Shown here: one piece after another, positions 9,102-47,356 of the stretch
How positions within the stretch are numbered: position 1 is the stretch's first letter
Layout of the letters: each line of letters opens with the position of its first letter
Assembly (NCBI GenBank): GCA_963826535.1
Contig: CAWGXL010000011.1
Location: 128,809-192,808 of the forward strand
Length of the DNA: 64,000 bases
Reading direction: 5' to 3'
From: an uncultured bacterium
Lineage (GTDB): Bacteria > Patescibacteriota > Microgenomatia > Levybacterales > UBA12049
Notes under the pieces: generated by a model
Databases searched by the model: none
What the model was told of the DNA's origin: nothing
Seen by the model: only the letters and a program-made list of their open reading frames with translations
Made by a program: the position numbers and the translations under genes

Positions 9102-9638
9102 CTATTTTTTATTTTTTGGAATTTCATAGAGATAGATTTCATTTTTTAAATCTTGATGAATTATCGGCATATCAAGTTTATATACAACGGTGACAATACG
9201 CGTACCGGGCTTAAGTTCCTTAAGCAATTTCGGACGAAGCTTGGCCAGAGCTTTGGGTACAAGATACATAAAGACGACTGTCGCCTCTGTTATATCTGAG
9301 CTGAAAAAGTTTTTTCTGATAATTTTAACTTTCTTCCATTGACCGCTCAGCAAAACCATAAGCTTGGCAAGCGCTACACGCAAAGGATCTATCTCGACCC
9401 CGACTGCACGCGCACCAAACTCCTTTGCTGCGGTAATCAAAAACATTGCGTCGCCTGAACCAAGATCATATACAACATCATTTTTACCAATTTTTGCAAA
9501 CTTACATACGAGCCGTGAACGTTTGCTATCCGTGCGCCACCATGGGGACCAGGGACTATCCGGAGGCCAAACCATAGATAATAAGAAAACTAATAAAAGG
9601 ATGGTTACAAATAGGATTAAATAAGTAATGAGCTCCAT
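9102..9638 (-). CDS. class I SAM-dependent methyltransferase with N-terminal TM helix
   Basis: 'VYDLGSGDAMFLITAAKEFGARAVGVEIDP' is a SAM-binding motif I / post-I pair. Confidence 0.7.
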   Translation of the reverse strand: MELITYLILFVTILLLVFLLSMVWPPDSPWSPWWRTDSKRSRLVCKFAKIGKNDVVYDLGSGDAMFLITAAKEFGARAVGVEIDPLRVALAKLMVLLSGQWKKVKIIRKNFFSSDITEATVVFMYLVPKALAKLRPKLLKELKPGTRIVTVVYKLDMPIIHQDLKNEIYLYEIPKNKK

Positions 9639-9641: not shown

Positions 9642-9989
9642 TTATAAAAATACTTTCCCTATAATACTCTTCTTTTCTATCATACCAAATTTTCGGCTAT
9701 CAGTGCTTGCGTTTGTGTTATCTCCAGTGACAAAATATGTATTGTTTTCAATTTTTTGAATTCGTTTAATCAGTATCTTTCCATCGCGTGGATCTATAAG
9801 CGCAATAATATCAAATATTTGGGGATTTTTAAAAATGTAAGCAAACCTGTTAACCAACACCGTAGAGTTGTTTTGAAATGTTGGAACCATACTATTTCCT
9901 AAAATTCTAAATCTGTAAATAGGGGAAAAATTAAGAAAAAAAGCTCTAAACAGATTTTGTCTTCTTGAAGACAACATCGATTTCATCAA
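9642..9989 (-). CDS. sodX: S26-family signal-peptidase-like protease, putative Ni-SOD maturation protease
   Basis: 'GNSMVPTF' (catalytic Ser box) and 'GDNTNASTDSR' (box E) of type I signal peptidases. Immediately downstream of and overlapping sodN, as for SodX. Confidence 0.65.
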   Translation of the reverse strand: MMKSMLSSRRQNLFRAFFLNFSPIYRFRILGNSMVPTFQNNSTVLVNRFAYIFKNPQIFDIIALIDPRDGKILIKRIQKIENNTYFVTGDNTNASTDSRKFGMIEKKSIIGKVFL

Positions 9990-10362
9990 TAAGAGCTAGT
10001 AATTTTTGTGCATCAGCCGGATCTACCGATTTTTTTGTTTGCCCTGCTGCTTTTGTTGCCCGCCAAAAGAGATCATGCAACGCAGGAAATTTTATCACAT
10101 GTTCCGGTTTAAAATAGTCTGTCCAAAGTACCCAAAGGTGATGTTTTACCAATTCTGCCCGTTCTTCTTTAATAAGGATTGCGCGTATGCGGAATATTTC
10201 ATCCTTTGATTCCCGATACTTATTCATTGTATTGAGGATGCTTTCAGCTTCAATCTTTGCCTGAGCCGGATCATAAACGCCGCATGGCAAATCACAATGG
10301 GCGTAAGCTGTTTGGGTCGGAAGAAGATTTGCAAGAATCTGATAGAGCGTAAGTCTCATCAA
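9946..10362 (-). CDS. sodN: nickel-containing superoxide dismutase precursor
   Basis: Leader 'MMRLTLYQILANLLPTQTAYA' followed by 'HCDLPCGVYDPAQA', the Ni-hook motif exposed after leader cleavage. Confidence 0.85.
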   Translation of the reverse strand: MMRLTLYQILANLLPTQTAYAHCDLPCGVYDPAQAKIEAESILNTMNKYRESKDEIFRIRAILIKEERAELVKHHLWVLWTDYFKPEHVIKFPALHDLFWRATKAAGQTKKSVDPADAQKLLALIDEIDVVFKKTKSV

Positions 10363-10457
10363 AAAATGATACTATTCTGAAAGACAAAAATCAAGTCGTA
10401 AAATAGTAAGAAGAGCAACATTTGACTTTTATATTAACAATATACTAATGTCATAGT

Positions 10458-13089: not shown

Positions 13090-14562
13090 TTAAGATGACT
13101 TTTTTTGTACTTGGAGATGTTTAGTAAGTATTAAGCGCGCAGTGTCGTCAAGGTCAGAACGTTCTTGTGCCTCTAATAGAATTTCTTTTGATCGTTTAGA
13201 GTCCTCGAGTTGCGATATTGCAAGAATTGCTTCTATTTGAACCTCAGCAGATTTTTCTTCAAGAAGTGTCGTTCTTATAGCCTCAATTGCTTCTTTATTA
13301 CTCATGTAAAACAGCGACGCGACAGCTACTGCTCGAACGTGTTTACTTTCGTCTGTTTTCATTGAATCGATTAAGACTGCCGTAATAGCAGGGTGGGGAT
13401 GTGTCGCTAGCTCTTTAATAGCGGCTACACGTATGGAAACTCTGTTGTTTTTCAAATCTATATACAACTTTGCTAGTTCAGGGACTGATTTTATTTCTGA
13501 TTCTTTGTTGAATTTTTCTGCAACCTTGTTAATAAACTTTTCGATTGAATTCCGTATGTTTTCATCATTATTTTCTTCAATAGTGTTTATTTCTGCCATG
13601 AACTCTTTCAGGGCGGTGCCTCCCAGTGTTAATAGTTCCGAGAAGCCGATATCCAATGGATGGGTTCTTTCCGGCGTATTAAGAATGTTGATATTTTTGC
13701 TTGCGTTTGGAGAAACGATAATAACGCGCATATTTTTCAGTCGATTTGTAATCTGAGCTTTGATATGTAGGTCTCTCAAGCTATTGCCGGCAATGATTAA
13801 GATCTTTGTTTCCCTCAAAACATCACCAAATAAGGAGCTCAGTTGAGAATAAGGATCTCCAAAAATCTCTTTTTCTAGAGTAGGAATAATCATAAGAGGC
13901 TTCAGAACTTGGTCGTTTCTCGTTAAGTGAAAATCATAAGCAGGTAATGAGTATCCACGATCAAGCCGGTGAAATACTTTACCAGTGGCATCTACATACC
14001 AGTTCACAGATCCATGCAATTTTATTATGCGTAGTGCTTCGGCAAAAGTACCCTCCCAATTTGCTACCGTCTGACTACCTTCAGTTTTGAAACCATCAGA
14101 GTAAGGTAGCTTCAGCTGTTCGCTAACATATTCAAGAATTCTATCATAGTTTGTTGTGAAAACGTGCATTGGTGCTACCTTACTTAATTCTAGAATTATC
14201 TTGAACTCTCTTTGAGCTTTTGGTCTGTCAAATCGTTCACATGTGTCCACAATAAAAGCATCAAGGTAGCCCCGGAGCTGACGTGCTGTCTCTAACTTTT
14301 TCTTTATGTGATCTGTTTCAGTTACTCCAAGTAATACCATGCCCTCCGTTCCGGTTGTGATAACTTGTAAATCTGCCAAAAGGGTTTCGAGATCATTATC
14401 TCTTTTGCCACCAGATATTTCTAACTCCTTAAGAAATGCAAAGCATCCCGGATGCCGACTTTCAAGATAATCTCTAAATTGCGCATAGAATCCAGCCATC
14501 ATTGGTACACTATATGGCGACGATGCTCCTGCTCCAAGGAGAAAGGATATTGGATAGGTCAT
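13090..14562 (-). CDS. SIR2_2-family (putative NADase) protein with C-terminal HEAT/PBS-lyase-like repeats
   Basis: 'FLLGAGAS', 'VFTTNYDRILE' and 'KLHGSVNW' are SIR2_2 hallmarks. The C-terminus has repeated 'VR.AA...L' HEAT units. The start overlaps the stop of the upstream ATPase (ATGA). Confidence 0.8.
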   Translation of the reverse strand: MTYPISFLLGAGASSPYSVPMMAGFYAQFRDYLESRHPGCFAFLKELEISGGKRDNDLETLLADLQVITTGTEGMVLLGVTETDHIKKKLETARQLRGYLDAFIVDTCERFDRPKAQREFKIILELSKVAPMHVFTTNYDRILEYVSEQLKLPYSDGFKTEGSQTVANWEGTFAEALRIIKLHGSVNWYVDATGKVFHRLDRGYSLPAYDFHLTRNDQVLKPLMIIPTLEKEIFGDPYSQLSSLFGDVLRETKILIIAGNSLRDLHIKAQITNRLKNMRVIIVSPNASKNINILNTPERTHPLDIGFSELLTLGGTALKEFMAEINTIEENNDENIRNSIEKFINKVAEKFNKESEIKSVPELAKLYIDLKNNRVSIRVAAIKELATHPHPAITAVLIDSMKTDESKHVRAVAVASLFYMSNKEAIEAIRTTLLEEKSAEVQIEAILAISQLEDSKRSKEILLEAQERSDLDDTARLILTKHLQVQKKSS

Positions 14563-16436
14563 TCTTTCCTCTCCTCCTTTTTTATCAGTTCGTCAATCTT
14601 ATTTTTCAAGAATTCCTTCAAGAGAGGACTAGTTGAGAGCTGTGCTTTTTCATGAAGTTCCGGGTCAGTCAGCAACTTTTTGATCTTCCTCTGAGCAGAT
14701 ACAGTCCCATAAGCACTATCAAGATCTAGGTAGACCTGAAGTAATTGTCTTCTGACAGGATTACCTGCTACTTCAGGAATTATTTTCAGAATTTCTTGGA
14801 CTTCTTTGCTCGAAAAATTCATCAATTTTCCTCCTACATCTCTTATGACACGATCAGTGGTGTCTGGAAGATCAACCAGCTTAAACTCCTGTTCAAGTCC
14901 TAATAGCAGACTGAATAATTCGCTTTCCGCTATTGGTTCGAGCATAACTTCTTCCAAAGTTGCTTCATCAACGTGAATCCATCTGTATGAGTTTTTGCTA
15001 CATTCTTGGGATAAAATATCAGCTTCATGAAAGTTGACATTCTGTGTTTGTCCGTTGATCTCTACAGGAAAAGTTCTGTTCTGACATCGAATCACGAGTT
15101 CTCCTCTTAAGAGGAGATGTGCTATTCTTATATCTCTTGTTTGGACAGATTCTGTAATTTGTGCTGAACTGCTGCCTTGTTGAATCGATTGTTGGAATTG
15201 CTTCACTGCTTCTTCCTCTCTTACATAGTATAATCTTTTCGTATCCTTTGCCTTATCGATAATTGCTTTGACTGATAATCTTTTGTCAACTCCCAACTCC
15301 CTTACTCGTATCACTTTGGGTAACAAATTCTCGAGTTTTTGCAGGATATCGTTATCAAGGATTGATTTGGTTTGTCCGTAGTAAAGAATTGCAACATATT
15401 TGTCTATTTGGCCCATATCTACGCCTTTTGGGTCGTCTTCCAACGACTTTTCTATTTCACCAATTTTTTTTCTGACCAGTTGATTATAAAAACTTAGAAG
15501 ACGTTTCCCCAATTCCTGCCACTTATCATCGGGCTGGAATCCATCTCTACTCATCAAGATATTCAGTCCTCCAGGAAGAACGTCAATTTCGCCAATATAT
15601 CCTACTGCATGTTGGGAAATAAGAGTCTTATCATTATCTAATACCAGAAAGCCACCATTGCAAATGGTAAGGCTGCTCTGGATTGTCGCGCCGGCACTCT
15701 CCCATGTGTTATCAAGTGCAAGGAATCCTGATATTACGGAGGAATCTTTCACTTCAATTGCTCCTTCGATATTCGCGCCTTTCCATTTTTCAGTAACCTT
15801 CTTTTTCTCTTGCGTATCTACTTTTTCTATTTCGATAAACGATGCGTGTCTAGCATATTGTTCTACAGCATCAGAAACTTGATTGGCATTCATTGCCCCG
15901 CTAGGCTTCAATAAGAGCTTTACGGAAGTTCCACGGAGAGTGGGAATATCGGTAATTTCCACAAACTTTTCTTTTGGACCCATAACAGCAAATGCGATTC
16001 CAGTTTCTTCCTCCATTTTAGTTTTTACCTCAACTCTGTCAGCAACTCCAAAGCAACTCAAAATCCCGATCCCGAATTTTCCGATTTGGAAGTTTTTATT
16101 TCCAGACTGTTTAAGAAGTGCTTGTATATGAGGGACATCTTGTTTGGATGCTCCGACTGTAGCAAAGCTTTTTTGCAAGGATTCTTTGTTCATTCCTAGA
16201 CCATCATCGGTAATCTCAACCCAGTTTTCAGCAACAGAATAGCGTACTAAAATATTCGGAGAATAAGATGGATACTTGATTTTTTGAAGGCTGCATGCAT
16301 CCTCGGCATTTTGTAAAAGCTCCCGTATTGCAGTATATGCGGATTTATAGAGGTTATTTCCAATCAGGAGATCAAAGACATTATCATGGAGAGTAAAACG
16401 CATATCTTTCATAATATTATGGGAGGCTAGTTTCAT
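14559..16436 (-). CDS. Hsp90/HtpG-like GHKL ATPase (divergent)
   Basis: Bergerat-fold motifs 'IRELLQNAEDA', 'ITDDGLGM' and 'IGKFGIGILSCF'. Further HtpG-like blocks ('GTSVKLLLKP', 'ASFIEIEK', 'LNILMSRD'). 625 aa, about HtpG length. Confidence 0.7.
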   Translation of the reverse strand: MKLASHNIMKDMRFTLHDNVFDLLIGNNLYKSAYTAIRELLQNAEDACSLQKIKYPSYSPNILVRYSVAENWVEITDDGLGMNKESLQKSFATVGASKQDVPHIQALLKQSGNKNFQIGKFGIGILSCFGVADRVEVKTKMEEETGIAFAVMGPKEKFVEITDIPTLRGTSVKLLLKPSGAMNANQVSDAVEQYARHASFIEIEKVDTQEKKKVTEKWKGANIEGAIEVKDSSVISGFLALDNTWESAGATIQSSLTICNGGFLVLDNDKTLISQHAVGYIGEIDVLPGGLNILMSRDGFQPDDKWQELGKRLLSFYNQLVRKKIGEIEKSLEDDPKGVDMGQIDKYVAILYYGQTKSILDNDILQKLENLLPKVIRVRELGVDKRLSVKAIIDKAKDTKRLYYVREEEAVKQFQQSIQQGSSSAQITESVQTRDIRIAHLLLRGELVIRCQNRTFPVEINGQTQNVNFHEADILSQECSKNSYRWIHVDEATLEEVMLEPIAESELFSLLLGLEQEFKLVDLPDTTDRVIRDVGGKLMNFSSKEVQEILKIIPEVAGNPVRRQLLQVYLDLDSAYGTVSAQRKIKKLLTDPELHEKAQLSTSPLLKEFLKNKIDELIKKEERKE

Positions 16437-16738: not shown

Positions 16739-17179
16739 ATGGAGACAGGAAATTTTTTTCAAGTTCCGGTTAATTATTTTGCGGTTTTGTTGTGCGCTAT
16801 TGCAAGTATGGTGATAGGCTTTCTTTGGTATGGTCCGCTTTTTGGAAAACAATGGATGAAATTAGTTGGAATGACAGCCCAACATATGGCAAAAGCCAAA
16901 AAAGACATGCCTCAAACATATACGATAATGTTTATTTCCTCTCTTGTTATGGCTTATGTGCTTTTCCACTTTATATGGTATGCAGCGCCGGGAAACTACA
17001 CTCTCTTAATTTCAGTTAAAACCGCGATTTGGGCATGGCTTGGATTTGTTGCTACAGTGAGTTTGACAAAATTCTTATTCTCGCCTGAAAGAAAGTCAGT
17101 TAAACTTCTATTTATTGAAACGGGTTTTCATTTAGTAACTCTTATTGCGATGGGTATAATTTTTTATCTCCTCAAATAA
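16739..17179 (+). CDS. small integral membrane protein (DUF1761-like)
   Basis: Four predicted TM helices and 'LWYGPLFGKQW'-type motif. Confidence 0.45.
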   Translation: METGNFFQVPVNYFAVLLCAIASMVIGFLWYGPLFGKQWMKLVGMTAQHMAKAKKDMPQTYTIMFISSLVMAYVLFHFIWYAAPGNYTLLISVKTAIWAWLGFVATVSLTKFLFSPERKSVKLLFIETGFHLVTLIAMGIIFYLLK

Positions 17180-17212
17180 CTACTTTCCTATCTAAATCTA
17201 AAAAAGGCAAGT

Positions 17213-17584
17213 TTACTTTTTGTCGTAGTCGTAAAATACCACTTCTATATTGTGGTCATCGGGGTCATAGACAAAAGCGGCGTAATATCCGGGCCAATAT
17301 TCTTTGCGATATCCAGGCGCTCCGTTGTCGCGGGCTCCTGCTAAAAGAGCAGCTTTATAAAAATCCTTTACTTCCTTTTTGTTTTTTGCTTCAAAGGCAA
17401 CGTGTGACTTTGTTACCCCTTCTTTAATTCCGTGGATCCATAAGTCTGTATTTTTCCCGTCATTGAAACCTGCAGCCTCACCAAACTCCATCTTCTTTGT
17501 ATAACCCAAAGTCGCTAATGTTTTGGTATAAAAAGCTTTTGATTTTTTATAATTACTTACGGGGAGGGATGTGTGCGCGATCAT
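17213..17584 (-). CDS. VOC-family (glyoxalase/bleomycin-resistance fold) protein
   Basis: Paired beta-alpha-beta-beta-beta modules with 'H..LPV' at the N-terminus and 'HVAFEA...YDPDDHNIEVV' at the C-terminus. Confidence 0.65.
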   Translation of the reverse strand: MIAHTSLPVSNYKKSKAFYTKTLATLGYTKKMEFGEAAGFNDGKNTDLWIHGIKEGVTKSHVAFEAKNKKEVKDFYKAALLAGARDNGAPGYRKEYWPGYYAAFVYDPDDHNIEVVFYDYDKK

Positions 17585-17665
17585 AATCGCATATTAGCAG
17601 ATCAAAAGTTAAATTTCCAGTAAGAATAATTCTACTGCCTAAATGTGAACTACATTGACCAGACC

Positions 17666-18004
17666 TCATGCCTTCTGAGATCTATGTAACCAGTTGTTAC
17701 TTATTTTATCGTTATGGCAAAATATAAGATTCTCTTTTTCTATGTGGCTCATCTGCTTTATTTCCTCTTCCCGCTGACATGCCAATTCATTAGTTAAGTA
17801 TTTTTCATAAATCATAAGCTTCACGGGCCGCCTTGCGCGAGTGTATTTAGCACCATTTACCAGTTTACCATTGTGCTGCAGTAATCTTTTCGGTAAGTCA
17901 ATCGTTTTGCCTGTATAATATGTCCCATCAGCACACCTCACAATATAAACAAAATATTTTTTAGAAACGAAGTCAGACTGACTCATATTATTATGGTAAA
18001 GCAA
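17666..18004 (-). CDS. GIY-YIG nuclease-family protein (UPF0213/YhbQ-like)
   Basis: '[28 protein letters not shown]' (GIY...YIG) and 'AKYTRARRP'. Confidence 0.75.
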
Positions 18005-18087
18005 AAAAGAACAAATGCCAATAGGCTAATATCTAATTAATACTTTCACTTTTATTCGAAAATTAATATGCTATACTCTATTTTATT

Positions 18088-18516
18088 ATGGGAGAAAATT
18101 TAATTGCAAAAAGTTCAATCGTGATAAATGCTCCGGTTGCAAAAGTTTGGGATGCTCTGGTAAATCCCGATATGATTAAGCAATATATGTTCGGAACCAA
18201 TGTTGTCTCAGATTGGAAGGCGCGCAGTCCGGTTGTTTGGAAAGGTGTTTGGAAAGGTAAAGCGTATGAGGACAAAGGTGTGATTCTCAAAATAGAGCCG
18301 GAGAAAAAACTTCAATATACGCATTTCAGCCCGCTTTCAGGCGCTTCTGATATTCCTGAAAACTATCATACCCTGACCTATGAATTGAAAGAGCAAGGAG
18401 ACAATATGCAAGTAATACTATCTCAAGATAATAATTCAAGCGAAAAGGAGCGGGAGCATTCGCAAAAAATGTGGGCTAGTATGTTGGAAGGCTTAAAGAA
18501 AGTTTTGGAAAAGTGA
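18088..18516 (+). CDS. SRPBCC/AHSA1-family protein
   Basis: 'INAPVAKVWDALVNPDMIKQYMFG' matches the N-terminal block of Aha1/START-like SRPBCC proteins. Confidence 0.65.
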   Translation: MGENLIAKSSIVINAPVAKVWDALVNPDMIKQYMFGTNVVSDWKARSPVVWKGVWKGKAYEDKGVILKIEPEKKLQYTHFSPLSGASDIPENYHTLTYELKEQGDNMQVILSQDNNSSEKEREHSQKMWASMLEGLKKVLEK

Positions 18517-18545
18517 ATCTATTCACAATAAAAAAATAAACAACT

Positions 18546-19280
18546 ATGAGTACCAAGAAAAAATGGAATTTTAGCGGGTTAAAAGCGCTTTTTATCAATT
18601 GCACACTTACGAAGTCGCCAGAACCAAGCCACACAGAACGGCTTATCAAAGTTAGTCGTAAGATTATGGATAAGCGAGGCGCGAAGACCGAGCTCATCCG
18701 CGCGATTGACCGCGATATTGCGACTGGGGTTTACCCAGACATGCGGGAACATGGATGGAAGACAGACGAGTGGCCAGGGATTTATAAGAAGAAAGTGATG
18801 GCGGCAGATATACTTGTTCTTTGCGGGCCGATTTGGCTTGGCGACAATAGTTCACAGATGAAAAAGATCATTGAGCGTCTATACTCTTGTTCCGGTCTTC
18901 TTAATGATAAAGGACAATATGCATATTATGGAAAAGTTGGTGGAGCAATTATTACCGGCAACGAGGATGGAATAAAACACTGCACAATGAATATTCTTTA
19001 TAGCTTGCAGCATATCGGCTACACCATCCCACCGCAAGCCGATGCCGGATGGATCGGGGAAGCAGGGCCGGGTGCAAGTTATGGGGACCGCGATAAAGAC
19101 GGCACCATTGCTGGCATAAATAATGACTTTACAAACCGTAACACTACCTTTATGACTTGGAACTTAATGCATTTGGCTAAAATGCTTAAAGATAATGGAG
19201 GCATACCGGCATACGGTAACCAGCGAAGCGAATGGGATGCAGGAGCCAGATTTGATTTTGAGAATCCAGAGTACCGATAG
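18546..19280 (+). CDS. flavodoxin-like fold NAD(P)H-dependent FMN reductase
   Basis: 'LFINCTLTKSP' N-terminal FMN-binding loop and 'ADILVLCGPIWLG', typical of the NADPH-dependent FMN reductase family. Confidence 0.6.
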   Translation: MSTKKKWNFSGLKALFINCTLTKSPEPSHTERLIKVSRKIMDKRGAKTELIRAIDRDIATGVYPDMREHGWKTDEWPGIYKKKVMAADILVLCGPIWLGDNSSQMKKIIERLYSCSGLLNDKGQYAYYGKVGGAIITGNEDGIKHCTMNILYSLQHIGYTIPPQADAGWIGEAGPGASYGDRDKDGTIAGINNDFTNRNTTFMTWNLMHLAKMLKDNGGIPAYGNQRSEWDAGARFDFENPEYR

Positions 19281-19301
19281 AGCCTTATCAATTTACACCC
19301 T

Positions 19302-19583
19302 TCAGTGAAAACTGTGGTGTTTGCGGTAGAGAAAGTGTTGGACCAGCGTAATTCCCCACATTATAACTCCTGCTGTAAAAGAGATGAGTGGAAGATACGC
19401 GCCTGTTGCGATAAAGAAACCAATTTGAGATATATAAAATCCTAATGCAATTAATATTGTAAGTAGAGGTTGACCGGAGCGTTTTTCACGATAATTTTTG
19501 GCAATTTGAGCAGGAATTCCAACTAACACTAAAGCCAGAGAAAAAACACTGACTAAAATACTTAATAGAAAAACTAAATCCAC
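19302..19583 (-). CDS. small membrane protein
   Basis: 93 aa with three hydrophobic helices. Confidence 0.4.
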   Translation of the reverse strand: MDLVFLLSILVSVFSLALVLVGIPAQIAKNYREKRSGQPLLTILIALGFYISQIGFFIATGAYLPLISFTAGVIMWGITLVQHFLYRKHHSFH

Positions 19584-19802
19584 GACACATATGATTTTAG
19601 CACGTTTTTAAGCGGTTGGGTCATGCAGATCTACATCTTGCTGCATTTTATATTAACTACTTTGACACACCGAAATTTAGAGTGATTGAACATTTCAAAA
19701 TAGATTAAAAATAATTGCTAAGCCGGGTCGAACTGAAGTCGGATGAAATATAAAGTAATTTTACTCTAAAGTCGAATATTATTTGATATAATAACTTTAT
19801 AT

Positions 19803-20696
19803 ATGTCCGGAGAAAATACTGAACAAAGTGACGGACCAGAAAAATTACAGATGAATAGACATGAAGGACATATTCAAGTTTCGGGTGGAAAAGTCTGGTA
19901 TGAAAGAATCGGCGAGCAAAAAGGCATTCCTCTTCTAATCGTTCATGGAGGCCCAGGGTATCCGCATGATTATCTAAAGCCGTTAGAAAAACTTGCAAGT
20001 AATCGCGAAGTTATTTTTTACGATCAACTTGGTTGCGGTAATTCAGATAAGCCAACAGATAAATCACTTTGGACTCTTGAGCGGTTTGTAACTGAAACTC
20101 AAGAGGTTATCAAGGGTCTTGAACTAAAAGACTATGATGTTCTAGGCCATTCATGGGGCGCAGGCTTAGGAGCCGAGGTTGCTCTTAACAATCCGCAAGG
20201 ATTAAGGCGTCTAATTCTTGCTGATCCATATCTCAGTAATCCCTTAATGGAAAAAGACCTAAAAAAACTTCGCGGACAACTACCGCAAGATATGCAAACG
20301 GCTCTTAAAACAGACAGTCCTGAATCAGATGCTTATAAGTTAGCCTTGAACGAATTTTACAAACGGTATTTCTGGGGACAGGACAATATTCCATCATATG
20401 CACTAGACGCAGATCGGAAATTCAACAGGGAAATATTTAATCAAATGGTGGGCCCCGATGAATTTAATGCCAGCGGCAATCTTAAAAACTTTGACTTAAC
20501 CAAGAGACTGCGGGAAATAAATATTCCTGTTCTTTTCCAATGCGGCCGATTTGATGAAGCGACGCCGGAAACTACTTCATATTTTCAAAGTTTGATTCCA
20601 AATGCCCAAATAGAAATTTTCGAACAAAGCGCGCACAACCCCCACGTGACCGAAACTGAGAAATACCTGCGAACTGTTGAAATCTTTTTACGATGA
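19803..20696 (+). CDS. pip: proline iminopeptidase (alpha/beta-hydrolase, S33)
   Basis: 'VHGGPGYPHDY' and nucleophile elbow 'GHSWGAGL'. Confidence 0.8.
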   Translation: MSGENTEQSDGPEKLQMNRHEGHIQVSGGKVWYERIGEQKGIPLLIVHGGPGYPHDYLKPLEKLASNREVIFYDQLGCGNSDKPTDKSLWTLERFVTETQEVIKGLELKDYDVLGHSWGAGLGAEVALNNPQGLRRLILADPYLSNPLMEKDLKKLRGQLPQDMQTALKTDSPESDAYKLALNEFYKRYFWGQDNIPSYALDADRKFNREIFNQMVGPDEFNASGNLKNFDLTKRLREINIPVLFQCGRFDEATPETTSYFQSLIPNAQIEIFEQSAHNPHVTETEKYLRTVEIFLR

Positions 20697-21032
20697 AATA
20701 ATCCTTGTATATTAGCAGTCGATTTTGTAATAGCCAAACCGATTTTAATGCTGGATTGGTATTGACATATCTTCCAATCTCTGGGAAGCTTAGAGTAGTG
20801 AATAATCCAGATATAACGCCGGTGAATAAAAAGCAGGAAAGAGTAGATGAGCTTGATGTCATCGGTGGAGTATTTGTAACTTTGCTCCGGAATACTATCA
20901 ATCGAATAAAACAACGTTTTCAACCACGTAAACAAGAATAAGTTTTGAGTGAAGTATAAATTTATTCGACCGCATGAGTAACCCTTGGTTTGAATAAGCA
21001 AAGGATGAAGCAAAATAAGCTAAAACTTCAGA

Positions 21033-21105
21033 CCTGCGCCTGACATTTGTACGGTCAAGTAGTCGACGGTGGATTGTTGGGTCGCTATATATTTATTGTA
21101 ACATT
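21033..21105. repeat. degenerate partial copy of the tfoX 5' end and upstream region (direct repeat with 24757-24828)
   Basis: About 85% identity over 72 bp to 24757-24828. Start codon mutated (ATG to ATA on the minus strand); retains only the 'ATQQSTVDYLTVQMSGAG' remnant. Confidence 0.55.
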
Positions 21106-21166
21106 CTTGATTCTTACAGAATTATGATTTACTTTGTTTAATTTTTTGCTATAATAAATTTTAGAT

Positions 21167-21550
21167 ATGTTCAAAGCTTCTAAGGCGTTCAGTAGTTTTT
21201 CAACAAATGACCTTTCAAAGTCTAAGGAATTTTATGGCAAGATCCTTGGTCTAAAGGTCGTAGAATTCAAAGCAATGGGTATTTTGAACTTAAGCCTAGC
21301 CGGAGGAGGAAAAGTGATGATTTATCCGAAGGACAATCATATCCCGGCGAGCTTTACGGTTCTTAACTTTCCTGTTAATAATATCGTTCAAGCAGTGGAC
21401 GCATTGACAAAGAAAGGTGTGAAATTTGAACAGTATACGGGCGAGATTAAAACCGATAAAAAGGGGATATCTCGAGGCGAAGGAGTAAGTATGGCTTGGT
21501 TTAAAGACCCGGCAGGAAATATACTCTCTGTACTAGAAGAAAAGGAATAA
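21167..21550 (+). CDS. VOC/glyoxalase-like domain protein
   Basis: '[21 protein letters not shown]' and '[16 protein letters not shown]', typical of the glyoxalase fold. Confidence 0.6.
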
Positions 21551-21629
21551 CCGTTCCTTCCTACCTTCAATCCGCACTTATTGCATACCCTCTTGACACT
21601 AACGTTACGTCATAGTTTATAATCCTCTT

Positions 21630-22388
21630 ATGACTTACACAGTGAATCAACTCGCAAAGCTTGCCGGAATCAGCGTCCGGACACTACATTATTATGATGA
21701 GATCGGACTTCTTAAACCGTCGTTTGCCAAAGCTAACGGTTATCGTTGTTATGGAGAGAAACAACTCGTAAAGTTACAGCAAATTCTTTTCTTCAGAGAA
21801 TTAGAATTCCCGCTCGAAAAGATTAAGCAAATTATGCAGTCCCCCCGTTTTGATTCGGTTGCGGCTCTTGCAGATCAGCAGAAACTTCTAGAGCTTAAGC
21901 AGAAAAAAATTGAAAGATTAATTAAAACAATTACTAAAACAATTCAGTCATTGAAAGGAGGTGGGTATATGAACAACGATGATAAATATTCCGCATTTAA
22001 TGATCCAACGTATCAAAAATACAAAGAGGAAGTGGAACAGCGGTGGGGGAACACTGAGGCATATAAGCAATCAATAGAAAGAGTCGGGAAAATGTCCAAA
22101 GTTGAACTTGATCGGGTCAAAGCTGAAGCTGAAGAAATTACACAATCTACAGCTACACTGCAGATCCAAGGATTTTCTCCGACCAGTCCTGAAGTACAGA
22201 AACAGATAAACCGTTTTTACCGTCATCTCCATAACTTCTATGATCCCAGTTATGAAATGTTCAAAGGGCTTGGACAAATGTATGTGGATGACCCACGGTT
22301 TACAGCAGTATATGAGAAACATGCAAAGGGATTTGCTAAGTATATGCGTGATGCGATGGCTTTTTATGCAGATGAGCATGATAAATAA
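21630..22388 (+). CDS. MerR-family transcriptional regulator with TipAS-like C-terminal domain
   Basis: 'YTVNQLAKLAGISVRTLHYYDEIGLL' MerR HTH. Long C-terminal domain with 'FNDPTYQKYKEE...RFYRHL' as in TipAS/Mta. Confidence 0.8.
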   Translation: MTYTVNQLAKLAGISVRTLHYYDEIGLLKPSFAKANGYRCYGEKQLVKLQQILFFRELEFPLEKIKQIMQSPRFDSVAALADQQKLLELKQKKIERLIKTITKTIQSLKGGGYMNNDDKYSAFNDPTYQKYKEEVEQRWGNTEAYKQSIERVGKMSKVELDRVKAEAEEITQSTATLQIQGFSPTSPEVQKQINRFYRHLHNFYDPSYEMFKGLGQMYVDDPRFTAVYEKHAKGFAKYMRDAMAFYADEHDK

Positions 22389-22418
22389 GAGACGTGGATG
22401 TGTCAATTGAAGGAGAAA

Positions 22419-23177
22419 TCAAGGTATTCTGCGTTTTGCAATAAAAATCATTTCAGGACTTTCGGCACTTTTAGGCTTGCTGTCCCAGTCTCCATAAATG
22501 TTTTCTACCGAGAAACCTACATCTGTTAATGATTTAATGAGTTCTTTCTGAGTCCAAAACCTCAACTCATTCGTTGACACTATTACTTCTCCAGATTTTG
22601 TGAAAAGATAGTGAATATCGTAACGTACCTTCTCGCCATTAGTATCTAAGAATTTAACCCACCATTCAACTTGTCCTGCTTTCGGATCGTTAAGTTTTTG
22701 GTGCGATTCCTCAGTCGGCCATGTAGCAAATGGTAAAATGAGAGGGTTTCGGCTTTCAAAGGCAATATGACCACCGGGCTTTAGCGCTTTATGGAAAACC
22801 TTGAGCGTTTCTAGCCAATTTTCATCTTCAAGGAAGAACTGAGCTACATGACCAGTCATAATCACAAGGTCAGCTTGTATGTTACCCAGCTGCTGTGTAC
22901 CTCCCTCTATCCATAGCACGTGTTTGCCATCACATCTTTGCCTTGCAAGCTCAAGCATTCGTCCTGATGGATCAACACCAATCATGTGATGACCTTTTTT
23001 GGCCAATGCGCAAGTTAGTAGACCAGAGCCGCAACCGAAATCAATAATTGATGATGCCACTAGTTTTGTTGCAAGTTCTAAATAGAACCCTTCATAGCTT
23101 GCGATTGGATTTATTGTGTCATAGATTGCGACAAGACGTGGATCTGAGAACTCACTGTAGGTTGGTTTTTTATTCAT
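22419..23177 (-). CDS. class I SAM-dependent methyltransferase
   Basis: 'IIDFGCGSGLLTCALAKKGHHMIGVDPS'. Confidence 0.75.
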   Translation of the reverse strand: MNKKPTYSEFSDPRLVAIYDTINPIASYEGFYLELATKLVASSIIDFGCGSGLLTCALAKKGHHMIGVDPSGRMLELARQRCDGKHVLWIEGGTQQLGNIQADLVIMTGHVAQFFLEDENWLETLKVFHKALKPGGHIAFESRNPLILPFATWPTEESHQKLNDPKAGQVEWWVKFLDTNGEKVRYDIHYLFTKSGEVIVSTNELRFWTQKELIKSLTDVGFSVENIYGDWDSKPKSAESPEMIFIAKRRIP

Positions 23178-23238
23178 AGTGCATAACCCTATTGTATCAA
23201 AGTAAAATTTCCAAATTGTAATTTTTTAATTTCCTCAC

Positions 23239-23982
23239 ATGGTCTCACCTGGTATACTTTTGATAATGAGATATCTGCTTATTCTTTTTATCTTATTCGG
23301 AGTTGTAGGATTTATATATAATTCTTATATGAATAATCATTTGAAAACGAATACGCATAAATATAGATATTTTGTTGTTGGAGATTCATATAGTATTGGA
23401 GAAGGTGCGACAAAAGAAGAATCATGGCCGAGTTTGTTAACAAAACATTTACAGGATAGTGGTGTAGATATTGAATTAATTGCAAACCCATCGGTAACGG
23501 GTTGGACAACGCAACAGGCAATTGATAATGAATTACCACTTTACGAATCTTCCGAAGTTACATTTGCCTCGCTTCAAATTGGCGTAAATGACTGGGCGCA
23601 GGGAGTAGATAAGGACACATTCCACAAGAATTTAGTAATACTTCTTGATAGAATGCAAAAAAAGTTACCCGAGAAAAATCTTCTCCTACTGGTAACTATT
23701 CCTGATTTTGGTGTTACACCTACAGGTGAACTCTTTGGTAATGGAGTTGATGTTTCAAAAGGTATTGAGGAATTTAATCAAATTATAAAAGATGAAGCTA
23801 AGACGCGGCAACTTCCTATTGTTGATATTTATCCCGTGTCTAGACAAATGCAAAATAATCCGGATTTAGTTGCTCAGGATGGACTGCACCCATCTGCAAA
23901 AGAATACAAAATATGGGAAAGTTTGATTTATCCGGTTGCGTACAAATTATTAAGTGACGATCAACAAGCTGTTAAGAAGTAA
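23239..23982 (+). CDS. SGNH/GDSL-family hydrolase (N-terminal signal anchor)
   Basis: 'YFVVGDSYSIGEG' (GDS block I) and C-terminal 'DGLHP' block V. Confidence 0.75.
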   Translation: MVSPGILLIMRYLLILFILFGVVGFIYNSYMNNHLKTNTHKYRYFVVGDSYSIGEGATKEESWPSLLTKHLQDSGVDIELIANPSVTGWTTQQAIDNELPLYESSEVTFASLQIGVNDWAQGVDKDTFHKNLVILLDRMQKKLPEKNLLLLVTIPDFGVTPTGELFGNGVDVSKGIEEFNQIIKDEAKTRQLPIVDIYPVSRQMQNNPDLVAQDGLHPSAKEYKIWESLIYPVAYKLLSDDQQAVKK

Positions 23983-24023
23983 TGAGTGTAAAGCAACTCC
24001 AACCTTTGATATAATTTTAACTA

Positions 24024-24461
24024 ATGAGTGATTACGACCCAAATTATATTCCTCATAAAACATATGCATTAATTGGTCAAAAAGCTGTTATTCTGAATAA
24101 CCAAAAACAGATATTGGTTTTGCAACGGTCAGATAAATCAGGGGCAGGCGGCAAATGGTCGCTGGCCGGCGGGGCGTTGGAGGATAAAGAAGAACCGTAT
24201 AGTGCAATTAAAAGAGAGATTAAAGAAGAAACCCATCTGGAAGTATCTGAATTGAAACCTTATTATTTACGAACGTATACGACTAAAGATAATGATTTTG
24301 TTTTAATTGTAGCTTATCGTTGTAATACGAACTCGGAAAAGGTAGTTTTAAACTGGGAACATGATAATTATAAATGGTGTACAAGAGATGAAGCGTTGCA
24401 ATTAGAACTTACTGAGGACGGTAGATTTTTTATAGAACATTTTGATAATAATAGCTTCTGA
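24024..24461 (+). CDS. NUDIX hydrolase
   Basis: Nudix box 'GGALEDKEEPYSAIKREIKEETHLEV'. Confidence 0.8.
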   Translation: MSDYDPNYIPHKTYALIGQKAVILNNQKQILVLQRSDKSGAGGKWSLAGGALEDKEEPYSAIKREIKEETHLEVSELKPYYLRTYTTKDNDFVLIVAYRCNTNSEKVVLNWEHDNYKWCTRDEALQLELTEDGRFFIEHFDNNSF

Positions 24462-24491
24462 GCCGAACTAACCGGAGGGTTTTTATCATTT

Positions 24492-24860
24492 CTACTTTTT
24501 CGGTTTTGGTAGTGGGAGTTCTGCGGCGGTTTTGGCGATAAGTTGTGAAAGCAGGTCTCGGTCTTCCCAATAATCACCACTGATATAAAAATAGGGTTTG
24601 GCTCCAGGATAAGGCGGAGTTTCTTCTACGGAGCCGATTATATCTCTACCGGCTTTGGTTGGTTTGACGAAAAGCATCTCATCACAAACCAGAGCGACAA
24701 CTTTGTCATTGCAATAGATTGCGTATTCGCCAAACATCTTCCGAGATCTGATAACTCCTGCTCCTGACATCTGTTCGGTCAAATAATCGACCGTGGATTG
24801 TTTGGTTGCCATATTTTTAGTGTAACATAAACGATTTCTTCGATTTTTTTCGGAATTCAT
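24492..24860 (-). CDS. tfoX: TfoX/Sxy N-terminal-domain protein (true start probably ATG at 24812)
   Basis: 'MFGEYAIYCNDKVVALVCDEMLFVKP' matches the TfoX_N domain. The conserved upstream block at 24813-24828 suggests translation starts at 'MATKQSTV'. Confidence 0.65.
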   Translation of the reverse strand: MNSEKNRRNRLCYTKNMATKQSTVDYLTEQMSGAGVIRSRKMFGEYAIYCNDKVVALVCDEMLFVKPTKAGRDIIGSVEETPPYPGAKPYFYISGDYWEDRDLLSQLIAKTAAELPLPKPKK

Positions 24861-39812: not shown

Positions 39813-40721
39813 ATGACCTTCTTTGATAAATTTGAACTCCTGAAAAAATCCATTCCTGTTCCGGCGGTGACGATTGTAGATACTGTGGATTGTGAATATG
39901 TAGATGGCGTCTATCTAAGCAAAAATTGTTACTTTTGTTTCGTTTGCTTTGATCTTGAAGACGGTGCTTATAACACACTAGGATTCTATTGTAAAAAACT
40001 TGTAGATTGTGACGCAGTGGATGCGTCAGAGAAATGCTATGAAAGCATAAATTCTTCTAAATGTTACAATTCTACATATCTAATAGATTGTAATAGCTGT
40101 ACCGATTGTCATTTTTCAACATTTTTGATTTCTTGCACTGATTGTTTTGGATGTGTTGGATTAACTCATAAAAAATATTGTATCTTTAACAAACAGTTCT
40201 CCAAAGGAGAATACTTTAAGAGTGTAGAAGAATTAAAAAAAGAGAAGCCGGAAAAGATCCTGGCCAAAATGTTTAAACTGAAACAAACCATACCCCATCC
40301 TGCCAGCCAACAGTTTAACAATGAAAATTGTCCATATGGAGATTATATAATTGGCTCAAAGAACATGTATTGGAGTTTTAATAGTTATTATGGTGAAAAC
40401 TCCGGATATACATATGTTACAGGACTTATAAAAAACTGCTGGGATATATTATTGGGAGGGGGAAATCGAACTAAAAAAACTTATTCTGAGCGATGCTATG
40501 AACTTTCGTATTCAAACCATTGTTATAACTCCGCGTTTTTACAAGATTGTTTTGATTGCACCAATTGTTCTTATAATACATACCTAAGAAACTGTTCGGA
40601 TTGTTTTGGTTGTGTCGGGTTAACAAACAAAAAATACTGCATATTTAATAATCAGCTTACAAAAGAGCAGTATGGAAAAACCGTTAAAGTGATAAAAAAA
40701 GAGCTTGGGTGGAATTATTAG
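39813..40721 (+). CDS. cysteine-rich repeat protein, paralog 2 (tandem duplicate of 38844-39755)
   Basis: Same architecture and motifs as paralog 1 ('CTDCFGCVGLTHKKYCIFNKQ', 'CSDCFGCVGLTNKKYCIFNNQLTKEQY...IKKELGWNY'). 302 aa. Confidence 0.6.
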   Translation: MTFFDKFELLKKSIPVPAVTIVDTVDCEYVDGVYLSKNCYFCFVCFDLEDGAYNTLGFYCKKLVDCDAVDASEKCYESINSSKCYNSTYLIDCNSCTDCHFSTFLISCTDCFGCVGLTHKKYCIFNKQFSKGEYFKSVEELKKEKPEKILAKMFKLKQTIPHPASQQFNNENCPYGDYIIGSKNMYWSFNSYYGENSGYTYVTGLIKNCWDILLGGGNRTKKTYSERCYELSYSNHCYNSAFLQDCFDCTNCSYNTYLRNCSDCFGCVGLTNKKYCIFNNQLTKEQYGKTVKVIKKELGWNY

Positions 40722-42113
40722 TTATTAAAATGAGCAGCAAGCAAAAATTACAATCTATTAATCCTTCAAACTATCAAGCTCTAGGAACAGTTGATATTTC
40801 AACAGCTCAAGAGATTGAAGGAAAAGTTAAGCTTGCAAGAAGCGCGCAAAAGAAATGGGCTGATTTGGGTATTGCCAATAGAGTATCGGTTTTGAAAAAT
40901 GCTTTTGAAGATTTTAAAAAACAAAAAGAAATGTTTATTCTATTGCAGTCAAGAGAGATGGGAATGCCCGTTAACGAATCTCTTATTGATTTTAATTCAA
41001 CCATTGATTATGCAAATTGGAATTTTGAAAATGCAGAAAAGTATTTAAGGCCTGAAACCACTTTTGAAAATGAGCGCGAAATCCACCAAGTTTTTCATGA
41101 ACCCATCGGCGTTTCGGCAGCTATTGTTCCTTGGAATTTTCCTTTCGCAAATTTTGTATGGGGCACTCTTCAAAGTTTAATCGCCGGCAATACAGTTGTT
41201 TTCAAACATTCCGAAGGAATGTCCGTTATGTGGAAAATTCATAGATGAGATTTTTACTAAGCACTTACCCAAAGGAGTTTTTAATGAGGTGTATGGAGGC
41301 GGAGAAGTTGGAAATTCACTAGTTAATCAAAACATTAATATGATTGCTTTTACGGGGAGCACTAAGACCGGAAAGAAGATATATGAGATAGCAGGAAAGA
41401 AATTCATAAAAGCAGTAATGGAGTTAGGTGGATCTGCGCCTGGCGTAGTATTTGAGGATGCCGATCTTGATTTAGCTGTTGGGAATATCTGCTTCAATAG
41501 GTTACTTAATCAGGGGCAATGTTGCGATGGGTTAAAACGCCTTATCGTGCATGAAAGTATATTTGATGAAGTTGTGAAAAAAGTTGCTACTACTTTTTCA
41601 GCTAAAAAGGTAGGAAACGCTACAGACAAGCATACTGAAGTCGGCCCACTTGTTGCGAAAAGACAACTTGAATTGCTTATTTCTCAGGTTGAAGACGCAA
41701 AGACAAAAGGCGCAAAAGTGATTACGGGTGGCAATTCACTTGAAGACAAACTAGGCGGCGCGTTTTTTGAGCCAACAGTATTAACAGGTATTACAAACGA
41801 CATGCGGGTCTGGAATGAAGAAGTGTTTGGTCCGGTTTTGCCAATTGTAAAATTTAAAACCGAACAAGAAGCAATTGAGCTTGCCAATCAGACGGTTTAT
41901 GGCTTAGGTTCGTATGTGTTTACAAACGATAAAGATAAAGCAGAGAGAGTAACAAGCGCGATTGAATCCGGCATGGTGAGCGTCAATGGCACAAATTATA
42001 TTATGCCGTTTAATCCATTTGGAGGCTACAAAAATTCCGGAATTGGAAGAGAACATGGTAGATATGGGTTTGACGTAGTGACGCAGATAAAGATTATTGC
42101 TAAAAATAAATAA
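40709..42113 (+). pseudogene. aldehyde dehydrogenase family, interrupted by +1 frameshift near 41215
   Basis: Two overlapping ORFs (40709-41248 and 41196-42113) together span a full ALDH ('GNTVVFKHSE' | 'ECPLCGKF...', catalytic 'GQCCDG', 'ELGGSAP'). One extra base in 'CCGAAGGAATG'. Confidence 0.7.
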
Positions 42114-44651: not shown

Positions 44652-44687
44652 ATAGCTATTGTACCAAATATAGCTATTGTACCAAAA
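44652..44687. repeat. 18-bp tandem direct repeat (ATAGCTATTGTACCAAAT x2) in the 5' leader of the PKD gene
   Basis: Two adjacent copies between the upstream terminator and the ATG. Each contains TACAAT (minus strand: TTGGTACAATAGCTAT). Confidence 0.5.
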
Positions 44688-44688
44688 A

Positions 44689-44713
44689 GGGCGGTTGTTA
44701 CACCGCCCTCTCT
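44689..44713 (-). terminator. intrinsic terminator of the YcnI-like gene
   Basis: Stem GGGCGGT / ACCGCCC with a 6-nt loop followed by T5 on the minus strand, about 55 nt after the stop at 44767. Confidence 0.5.
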
Positions 44714-44766
44714 TTTGTCCCGATTGAATCGAGATTGCTCTAAGTATTAATTGTGCATGCTTTGCT

Positions 44767-45450: not shown

Positions 45451-45531
45451 CTCCTTTCATTATGGACTAGGCAATAATTTGCCAGTAAACGAATACTTAG
45501 AGCTGGACCTGCCTGCCGGCAGGCAGGAAAA

Positions 45532-45897
45532 TTAAGAGAAAACAGGAGGTGATCTATTGTTTACCGAAGGGGTAAATAGGAACGGACGAAAAACATTAGG
45601 ATTATTTTCACTTTCCTGAACAAAAGTAACACTAGTAAAAACTTCAAACGGAACTGTGGTATCGCTAATTTGGGGTATACAGCAAGGATGGTGCTCCTTG
45701 GAATCTGCTGTTTGGTGATGATAGGCAAATGTTAACTTAGCAGGATTTAAGTGGATTGCAGTAAAAACAACAAGAAGCGTAATGACTAATACTTGAAACT
45801 TTGATAAATTTAAAAGTTTATCTTTAAGAAGAATTATGAAAGCTAAGACTAAGGGAGTAAAAATTAGAAGATAATGTGCTAAATGATCATGCTCCAT
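45532..45897 (-). CDS. small membrane protein
   Basis: Two to three hydrophobic helices; His-rich N-terminus 'MEHDHLAHY'. Confidence 0.4.
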   Translation of the reverse strand: MEHDHLAHYLLIFTPLVLAFIILLKDKLLNLSKFQVLVITLLVVFTAIHLNPAKLTFAYHHQTADSKEHHPCCIPQISDTTVPFEVFTSVTFVQESENNPNVFRPFLFTPSVNNRSPPVFS

Positions 45898-45898
45898 A

Positions 45899-46369
45899 TT
45901 ATTTTTTTGCTGTACTTTTTATGCCTTTTTTAATAACAACCCAAATTAAAAGTGCGACTGCTAAAAAGCCGACTGAGATATGAAAAATATGCGTTAAAAC
46001 CCAGTTATTAATTTCAGGTTGGGCAGGTGCGGTTTGTTCTGCTGCTGTTTGTAAATTCTCGGATATTCTTTCTACCCGTAAGTCATATTCTAGCGTAAAA
46101 TCATTGAAAGCTCCAGGAGAATTAGGCTTCCCTACAATTCTTACTTTATAAACATCTCTTTGCGGAAATGTAAAGGACAGGCTGGCATTTGAAAGAGAAG
46201 GATTGGTATTATTAGAAAAAAGCTGCTGACTAAAAATTTCTTTTCCTGATTGCAAAATAGAAATAGTGCAATCGCAGTCAACAGGCTTAAATTTATTTTC
46301 TTTATCTTTAAACTCAAAGTAGAAATCACTTTGTTCACCAGCAATTGGATCATCTTCTGGGGGTAACAT
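45899..46369 (-). CDS. hypothetical protein with C-terminal TM anchor
   Basis: 156 aa with C-terminal 'ISVGFLAVALLIWVVIKK'. Adjacent to the metal-handling genes. Confidence 0.4.
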   Translation of the reverse strand: MLPPEDDPIAGEQSDFYFEFKDKENKFKPVDCDCTISILQSGKEIFSQQLFSNNTNPSLSNASLSFTFPQRDVYKVRIVGKPNSPGAFNDFTLEYDLRVERISENLQTAAEQTAPAQPEINNWVLTHIFHISVGFLAVALLIWVVIKKGIKSTAKK

Positions 46370-46722: not shown

Positions 46723-47319
46723 TTGTATATAGCTATGACTTTAAAGTCAACTTTCAAGATTTTTCTCCCACTCGCAATACTCCTTTTTGTCTTTCCATCA
46801 CCCGCACACGCTCATCTTATGGGAGGAAATGGAATTGTCAGCGGCTTGACTCATCCATTAATTGGTATCGACCACCTACTGGCAATGGTAGCTGTGGGAA
46901 TAATTAGCACACAAATTAAAGCCCGGACAATTTGGATTGTTCCTGCGGCTTTTATATGTTTCATGCTGGTTGGCGGGATACTTGCTATGAGTGTTGGTAT
47001 ACCGTTTATTGAAATAGGAATCGCATTATCTGTGCTTGTTTTAGGGATTGCAATAGCAATGGCACAAAAGTTTTCTCTTGGAATAGTCATAGCATGTGTT
47101 GCTTTTTTTGGGCTGTTTCATGGGCACGCACATGGTGGAGAAATGCCATTAATTGCTCATCCGGCATTGTATGCATCAGGCTTTGTGCTCTCCACAATAT
47201 TTCTACATTTTATGGGAGTATTGTTAGGACTTTACGCCCGTAGAACAAATTTGATGCTTAGAATGTTAAGGTTATCCGGGGCGGCAATAAGTATGGCCGG
47301 TGTCTTCTTCCTGTTATAA
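46723..47319 (+). CDS. hupE: HupE/UreJ-family Ni/Co transporter
   Basis: Signal peptide '...SPAHA|HLMGG', 'GIDHLLAMVAVG' and C-terminal 'HGHAHG', typical of HupE/UreJ. Confidence 0.8.
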   Translation: MYIAMTLKSTFKIFLPLAILLFVFPSPAHAHLMGGNGIVSGLTHPLIGIDHLLAMVAVGIISTQIKARTIWIVPAAFICFMLVGGILAMSVGIPFIEIGIALSVLVLGIAIAMAQKFSLGIVIACVAFFGLFHGHAHGGEMPLIAHPALYASGFVLSTIFLHFMGVLLGLYARRTNLMLRMLRLSGAAISMAGVFFLL

Positions 47320-47356
47320 GTGGTTTTATTTTACTCATGTTACGCAATATCTTCCT

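Follow-up and report, generated by a model that had tools for sequence, protein, structure and literature searches.

Characterized nickel-containing superoxide dismutases (NiSODs) are cytoplasmic enzymes, and the Streptomyces version is made with a 14-residue leader. In the Streptomyces system this leader ends in Ala, and the gene for the enzyme is adjoined by one coding for a dedicated small S26-family protease. Marine cyanobacteria (Prochlorococcus and Synechococcus) possess a sodN-sodX-sodT organization, in which the enzyme gene sodN and the peptidase gene sodX are co-directional, and the NiSOD of these organisms depends on both peptidase processing and nickel supply (PMC4284471). Among the Patescibacteria (candidate phyla radiation, CPR), a SodN phylogeny recovered at least three NiSOD clusters, with repeated horizontal gene transfer (HGT) being inferred (Sutherland et al., 10.1101/2021.01.12.426412), and superoxide dismutase (SOD) genes were reported in 66–83% of 587 groundwater metagenome-assembled genomes (MAGs) of this group, with an enrichment in oxic wells (PMC8672522). 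Here, we describe a locus from a 64,000-nucleotide stretch of DNA of an uncultured bacterium (contig CAWGXL010000011.1, positions 128,809 to 192,808; henceforth the window, in whose coordinates all positions are given). Its minus strand carries sodN (9946..10359) followed by an overlapping sodX (9642..9989), which very probably constitute a conventional sodN-sodX operon on the chromosome of a Candidatus Levybacteria bacterium.

The window SodN shares the hook HCDLPCGVYDP with the NiSODs of Streptomyces coelicolor and S. seoulensis (PDB: 1T6U and 1Q0D), to which it aligns free of gaps with 55–57% identity, and, as in that system, its leader ends in Ala and a gene for a dedicated small S26 protease adjoins it. 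It differs from the Streptomyces version in having a 20-residue leader with a lineage-specific LLP-x-Q-x-AYA motif. The gene order also differs, with sodX occurring downstream of sodN, co-directional and overlapping, as against the upstream position and divergent orientation on the opposite strand in the actinobacterial loci that we retrieved. The co-directional arrangement is shared with the cyanobacterial sodN-sodX-sodT systems, but the window sodN has no adjoining transporter gene; the only Ni/Co permease of the window is a HupE/UreJ protein encoded 36 kb away, whereas the cyanobacterial SodT belongs to the UreH family. With respect to the patescibacterial clusters of Sutherland et al. (10.1101/2021.01.12.426412), in whose text sodX is unmentioned (0 occurrences), the window gene is a further example, and the fixed-slot cassette pattern described below is an added detail rather than a different kind of system. 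The details added here are that sodX co-travels with sodN in the CPR, being co-directional and often overlapping, that the two form an accessory cassette in a fixed slot in Levybacteria, and that a proposed link between HupE and SodT is unfounded.

The initial annotation of this stretch had regarded a complete NiSOD module as noteworthy in the CPR, whose members were presumed to have few oxidative-stress genes. As regards SOD this premise is outdated, because, in addition to the published clusters and the MAG survey, our genome scan detected SodN in Levybacteria, Saccharimonadia, and Parcubacteria MAGs, and annotated relatives already abound: more than 100 protein clusters are 70–84% identical to the window SodN, some of them named by NCBI as 'superoxide dismutase, Ni [Patescibacteria group bacterium]' or '[Candidatus Saccharimonadales bacterium]'. 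The window locus is an ordinary sodN-sodX operon of a kind already known in Patescibacteria, and amounts to one more well-resolved CPR case of the complete NiSOD maturation pair. The CPR bacteria with this pair probably meet oxygen, which fits both the commonness of SOD genes in this group and their enrichment in oxic groundwater.

The NiSOD precursor and its maturation protease

The sodN gene (9946..10359, minus strand) codes for a precursor of 137 residues when read from the ATG at 10359, the start chosen by the public gene call; a TTG at 10362, one codon 5′ of this ATG, gives the alternative 9946..10362 with 138 residues. The product matches both the Pfam Sod_Ni profile (PF09055; 143.6 bits, cutoff 25) and the NCBIfam equivalog TIGR02753 (147.4 bits, cutoff 90), and the E-values of the sodN and sodX matches, ranging from 1e-21 to 1e-43, rule out chance in the identification of these genes. 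The precursor reads M(M)RLTLYQILANLLPTQTAYA/HCDLPCGVYDP, i.e., a leader, MRLTLYQILANLLPTQTAYA, and then HCDLPCGVYDPAQAK and the rest of the protein. Residues 21–136 form a gap-free alignment with residues 1–116 of the mature Streptomyces NiSOD (1Q0D and 1T6U; E=3e-37, 55–57% identity over 116 residues). This alignment sets the Ni-hook HCDLPCGVY (residues 21–29; codons at 10273..10299, minus strand), read directly from the sequence and the same as the N-terminus of the Streptomyces enzyme, opposite residues 1–9 of the mature chains, with the mature His1, Cys2, Cys6, and Tyr9 all in place. Glu17 and Arg47 (mature numbering), which we take to be the partners of His1 in the Streptomyces structures, are also kept. 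By analogy, SodN is predicted to bind nickel, assemble into a hexamer, and possess SOD activity. The closest metagenomic relatives of the window SodN (78–80% identity) are encoded at 878–1294 and 1871–2287 of two loci (L085 and L086, respectively) and read HCDLPCGVYNP, with Asp10 being replaced by Asn just past the Ni-hook.

Since the mature chain in the PDB structures begins at query residue 21, the predicted processing site falls exactly at Ala20/His21. The leader codons accordingly occupy 10300..10359 (minus strand), and the leader has 20 residues counted from the ATG or 21 from the TTG, the latter being the length that had been proposed for it. It terminates in Ala-Tyr-Ala, whose Ala residues at −3 and −1 fit the −3/−1 rule of S26 peptidases, and the motif LLP-x-Q-x-AYA/HCD is kept in approximately 50 related loci. 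The maximum 11-residue mean of its hydropathy is 1.48 versus 3.11 for the signal peptide of the window HupE, computed over the same number of residues, and, given this low value, the leader does not resemble a Sec signal.

The sodX gene (9642..9989, minus strand; 115 residues from the TTG at 9989) codes for a soluble S26-family protein. Its best-matching model is TIGR02754 (sod_Ni_protease; 78.2 bits, cutoff 63.25), and it is likewise recovered by the Peptidase_S26 profile (76.1 bits). Ser33 (in GNSMVPT), Lys75 (in IKRI), and the stretch GDNTNASTDSR lie opposite the catalytic boxes of signal peptidases I with solved structures (PDB: 4ME8 and 4NV4). No 19-residue segment of the protein exceeds a mean hydropathy of 0.84, and it therefore lacks a transmembrane (TM) anchor. 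The sodX frame offers just four start codons (TTG 9989, ATG 9986, ATG 9977, and TTG 9974), all of which lie within sodN, 5′ of its TAG stop codon (9948–9946); hence, the overlap of the two reading frames (9946..9989, minus strand) is real and extends over 29–44 nucleotides depending on the sodX start. An independent gene caller produced a 38-nucleotide overlap at a locus (L084) whose SodN is 84% identical, and the two genes also overlap or abut in L038, L004, L008, and L086. This arrangement probably allows translational coupling. Upstream, a consensus scan revealed a sigma-70-like match, TTGATT-17-TATCAT (10366..10394, minus strand; 9 of 12 positions), which ends 6 nucleotides 5′ of the sodN ATG and could point to a leaderless or near-leaderless sodN mRNA. 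The identities assigned to both genes in the initial annotation, along with its account of a leader preceding HCDLPCGVYDP, of the motifs GNSMVPTF and GDNTNASTDSR, and of overlapping frames, are borne out by these comparisons, and the alignment to the Streptomyces enzyme retains both Cys2 and Cys6.

Drawing on the Streptomyces and Prochlorococcus systems, we propose that SodN would be made as a precursor carrying the 20-residue leader, and that SodX, a predicted soluble serine protease with a Ser33/Lys75 dyad translated from the overlapping and probably coupled downstream gene, would cut after Ala-Tyr-Ala to leave His21 as the free N-terminus. Nickel would then be bound within the HCDLPCGVY hook by the amine of the new N-terminus, the amide of Cys2, and the thiolates of Cys2 and Cys6, and the resulting four-helix-bundle enzyme, hexameric in Streptomyces, would dismutate superoxide in the cytoplasm via Ni(II)/Ni(III) cycling. 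Given the weakly hydrophobic leader and a SodX free of membrane segments, the two proteins look like a dedicated, cytoplasmic pair of the kind known from Streptomyces and Prochlorococcus.

Host lineage and pairing of the two genes

The contig comes from Candidatus Levybacteria (Microgenomatia, CPR/Patescibacteria). Database entries 100% identical to SodN, RpoB, and HupE all lie on one 894,453-bp public contig. Among the best 120 RpoB matches, the named relatives at 77–82% identity are mostly labeled as Patescibacteria group, Ca. Levybacteria, or Levyibacteriota, with two being labeled otherwise, viz., Ca. Acidoferrales and Ca. Saccharimonadales. Levybacteria MAGs, one of them a closed 1.14-Mb chromosome, give the best genome matches for SodN, and the order RNase H-like, sodN, sodX, methyltransferase, FemAB, UvrD is common to the Levybacteria MAG loci L001–L005, with the flanking proteins being 55–76% identical between these and the window. 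The CPR-like character that had been suggested for this genome is upheld by the RpoB relatives and the synteny, and RpoB places the contig in the CPR rather than in an aerobic Firmicutes- or Actinobacteria-like organism. The rest of the window comprises a CPR-like backbone (TIM, UvrD, FemAB, MurJ, SerRS, RpoB/C, and SecA) and an accessory island; no rRNA or tRNA genes occur in the 64 kb. The GC content near sodN (0.34–0.37) does not differ from that of the remaining window. The identity of SodN to its relatives (70–84%) spans a range similar to that of RpoB (77–88%), which argues for a long residence in the lineage. In a coarse neighbor-joining tree, the window SodN falls in a cluster rich in CPR sequences, has neighbors from Dormiibacterota and Actinomarinales, and is far from Streptomyces; the trees used in this work are based on 90–170 residues and carry no bootstrap support, and are read only for such coarse statements. 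Two public labels are probable taxonomic mislabels: CAZLZN010000001.1 (L004) is titled 'uncultured Gammaproteobacteria', yet shares sodN-sodX-methyltransferase-FemAB-UvrD synteny with Levybacteria at 63–76% identity, and a protein labeled 'Candidatus Acidoferrales' (P0181) is an RpoB 82% identical to that of the window.

The association of the two genes extends well past the window: sodX adjoins sodN in 47 of the 80 genome loci detected with the window query, and in most metagenome loci. Throughout the CPR loci that we examined, it is always downstream and on the same strand, often abutting or overlapping sodN. The loci classed as lacking the pair yielded no tblastn match to SodN or SodX, L120 excepted, which fits a protease dedicated to SodN.

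A fixed genomic slot beside a membrane-anchored methyltransferase

Three nucleotides past the sodX stop begins the gene (9102..9638, minus strand) for a membrane-anchored class I methyltransferase, which is probably co-transcribed with sodX. The protein is related to the archaeal protein-lysine methyltransferase aKMT (PDB: 5FA8/5JWJ; E=2e-27), and combines an N-terminal TM segment (mean hydropathy 2.86), directly followed by an invariant SMVWPPDSPWSPWWRT motif, with an invariant WPPDSPWSPWWRT motif. Such bacterial, membrane-tethered relatives of an archaeal protein-lysine methyltransferase may be worth studying for their own sake. When metagenomes were scanned with this protein as the query, 80 loci were returned, 70 of which had enough sequence to judge the presence of sodX; it lies directly upstream of the methyltransferase gene in 58 of these, and SodN is present in 51 of 59 loci of the same scan. 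The SodN proteins fall into three types: type A, to which the window protein belongs (HCDLPCGVYDP, ~138 residues), a short type B (HCD[IV]PCGIYDP, ~146 residues), and a long type B with a C-terminal extension (160–170 residues). Types A and B are only 33–45% identical, and the leader motif LLP-x-Q-x-AYA is found in all three types.

The cassette slot is situated between the gene for an RNase H-like or a membrane protein and that for the aKMT-like methyltransferase. In 8–10 loci, sodN and sodX are missing and the RNase H-like, methyltransferase, FemAB, and UvrD genes are kept. The persistence of the methyltransferase and its flanks in these cases indicates that it is a backbone gene, upstream of which sodN-sodX is a present-or-absent cassette. 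The sodN-sodX pair is an old accessory cassette of the lineage, occurring at the same slot in most but not all related contigs, and the pattern of presence and absence is consistent with adaptation to oxygen exposure. As an aside, the methyltransferase gene sits beside FemAB-UvrD across many Levybacteria-like contigs (L001–L005, L084, and L085–L164), whether or not they contain the cassette.

Alternative explanations

Several observations weigh against the reading of this locus as a conventional operon. SodX also passes the general signal peptidase I model TIGR02227 (75.6 bits, cutoff 47), beside which its margin over the TIGR02754 cutoff is small; by sequence alone it is not sharply separable from a housekeeping LepB, and it is the context that separates them. 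The sodX start codon is ambiguous with no evident Shine-Dalgarno sequence, the sodN promoter match is a weak one from a scan that yielded 11 sites in the region against 8.4 expected by chance, and the number of SODs and the nickel transporter are viewed through 64 kb of an 894-kb contig. The match to TIGR02227, the n-h-c layout of the leader (MR / LTLYQILANLL / PTQTAYA), and its Ala residues at −3 and −1 would be in keeping with an exported SodN, in which the leader is a Sec-type signal peptide, the S26 protein is (or doubles as) an ordinary signal peptidase I, and the enzyme is an extracytoplasmic NiSOD. We consider such an export extremely improbable: the hydropathy of the leader is low in comparison to the HupE signal peptide (1.48 vs 3.11), the protease lacks the membrane anchor that a housekeeping type I signal peptidase requires, and its best model is the NiSOD-specific TIGR02754; moreover, the loci without the cassette have no SodN or SodX tblastn match except for L120, the type B leaders of the relatives are Lys/Arg-rich and amphipathic, and the NiSODs characterized to date are cytoplasmic. 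It might also be supposed that the pair derives from an aerobic Actinomycetota-like organism, either by recent horizontal transfer or as a binning or assembly artifact, and has little bearing on CPR biology. After the CPR, the next-best genome matches are indeed from Actinomarina/Acidimicrobiia (61–72% identity), some related contigs lack the cassette, and, according to the published phylogeny, Patescibacteria repeatedly acquired NiSOD by HGT (10.1101/2021.01.12.426412). However, the genes are embedded in a long contig amid backbone genes (RNase H-like, M20 peptidase, FemAB, and UvrD), and these flanks are syntenic in at least six Levybacteria-type loci, including the closed 1.14-Mb chromosome. 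Further, there is no GC anomaly, the divergence of SodN among the relatives parallels that of RpoB, and the same-strand, downstream sodX is the CPR layout and not the divergent actinobacterial one. These features render a recent or artifactual origin very improbable, and an ancient HGT of NiSOD into the lineage, not specific to the window genome, is likely.

The methyltransferase raises the further question of whether the conventional sodN-sodX pair is part of a three-component module, with this enzyme being a functional partner of NiSOD that, for instance, modifies SodN or a membrane client under oxidative stress. Its gene is separated from sodX by just 3 nucleotides in the window, directly follows sodX in 58 of the 70 loci of the metagenome scan, spanning three SodN types that are only 33–45% identical, and keeps this adjacency even when insertions separate sodN from sodX (L001 and L002). 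On the other hand, the methyltransferase with its FemAB-UvrD flank stays behind in the 8–10 loci that cleanly lack sodN and sodX, and it is absent at the sodN loci of Saccharimonadia, Parcubacteria, and actinobacteria. The linkage is accounted for by a backbone whose gene order is conserved and into which sodN-sodX was inserted upstream of the methyltransferase, making a functional partnership very unlikely; as an obligate NiSOD partner, the methyltransferase is rejected by the loci that have it and its flanks without sodN or sodX. The fixed-slot pattern itself was read from metagenome loci L085–L164 (e.g., L088, L096, L090, L092, and L119). In the short, unsupported neighbor-joining trees, those of the methyltransferase (i.e., the backbone) and SodX mostly track the SodN type. 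Two loci depart from this in the methyltransferase tree, namely L088 with a long type B and L096 with a short type B SodN, both of which are placed among type A backbones. This mismatch hints at replacement of sodN in place with retention of the resident protease. The more elaborate scenario, in which sodN-sodX of Levybacteria-like CPR is a replaceable cassette with one fixed slot, three SodN types, in-place replacement, and the methyltransferase as a possible third component, is a tentative one that we regard as unlikely.

The HupE/UreJ permease and the supply of nickel

The initial annotation had tied sodN to a set of nickel-handling genes at 43.8–49 kb via a HupE/UreJ protein equated with SodT. 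The permease itself is genuine: hupE (46723..47319, plus strand; likely ATG at 46735) codes for a member of the hupE/ureJ family of Ni/Co permeases (Pfam HupE_UreJ, PF04955; 171.6 bits) with a signal peptide (...PSPAHA/H) and the motifs HPLIGIDH and FGLFHGHAHG. The rest of this proposal finds no support, as the neighbors at 43.8–49 kb include no recognized nickel-handling gene, the cyanobacterial SodT is a UreH-family member according to a review, which also describes the marine cyanobacterial HupE as being under B12-riboswitch control and probably a cobalt importer (PMC4284471), and the window HupE is neither of the family of SodT nor co-localized with sodN, from which it is 36 kb removed. 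Its closest homologs (55–65% identity) are taxonomically scattered (Peregrinibacteria, Woesearchaeota, and Shewanella). None of these homologs falls on the long contigs that are listed for the nearest relatives of SodN, and no Sod_Ni gene lies within 8 kb of those encoding the HupE homologs P0248 and P0250 (loci L081–L083). With both a shared contig and a nearby sodN lacking, HupE as a co-inherited nickel supplier is unsupported, although it is not disproved; it may still feed nickel to SodN in the cell of the window organism, and the nickel could conceivably also serve two glyoxalase-family proteins encoded at 17.2 and 21.2 kb.

The surroundings of hupE (43785–49521) code for a PKD-domain protein, a DUF1775/YcnI-like protein, a 522-residue ferric-reductase/MsrQ-like heme membrane protein, and three proteins without a family match. 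The DUF1775/YcnI family has been linked to copper binding, and this region resembles a copper/redox surface cluster more than one for nickel handling. The intergenic region between hupE and a minus-strand open reading frame (ORF; 45899..46369) contains a nested inverted-repeat element (46553–46683), with the arms GGTAACTGTTCAC...GTGAACTGTTACC and TTGTCATCGCGA...TCGCAATGACAA plus a pair of inner hairpins. On either strand, its folding is much more favorable than that of shuffled controls (z of −5.0 and −6.9); it is single-copy in the window and has no counterpart visible upstream of the hupE homolog in L081. A riboswitch upstream of hupE was considered and rejected, with no Rfam match to the element being recovered even at E≤10. 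The element could be a cis-regulatory RNA for either of the divergent genes, a palindromic mobile remnant, or a terminator.

Other features of the window

An aldehyde dehydrogenase on the plus strand is split over two overlapping ORFs in different frames (40709–41248 and 41196–42113), which cover positions 4–167 and 164–461 of the Pfam Aldedh profile and point to a frameshift that reflects either a pseudogene or a sequencing error. A few kilobases from sodN, the minus-strand genes at 13090–14562 and 14559–16436, overlapping by 4 nucleotides, code for a SIR2-like protein with HEAT repeats, which matches PADLOC SIR2 models (E=1e-23), and a GHKL/HATPase_c_3 protein; the two look like a candidate anti-phage defense pair. 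Finally, the region 16739–24860 is an accessory-looking island, with genes for DUF1761, two glyoxalase/VOC-family, GIY-YIG, AHSA1-like, NADPH-dependent FMN reductase, and alpha/beta hydrolase proteins, and further for a MerR/TipAS regulator, a methyltransferase, a GDSL lipase, and NUDIX and TfoX-N proteins, i.e., detoxification and stress functions that are unusual in a minimal CPR genome.

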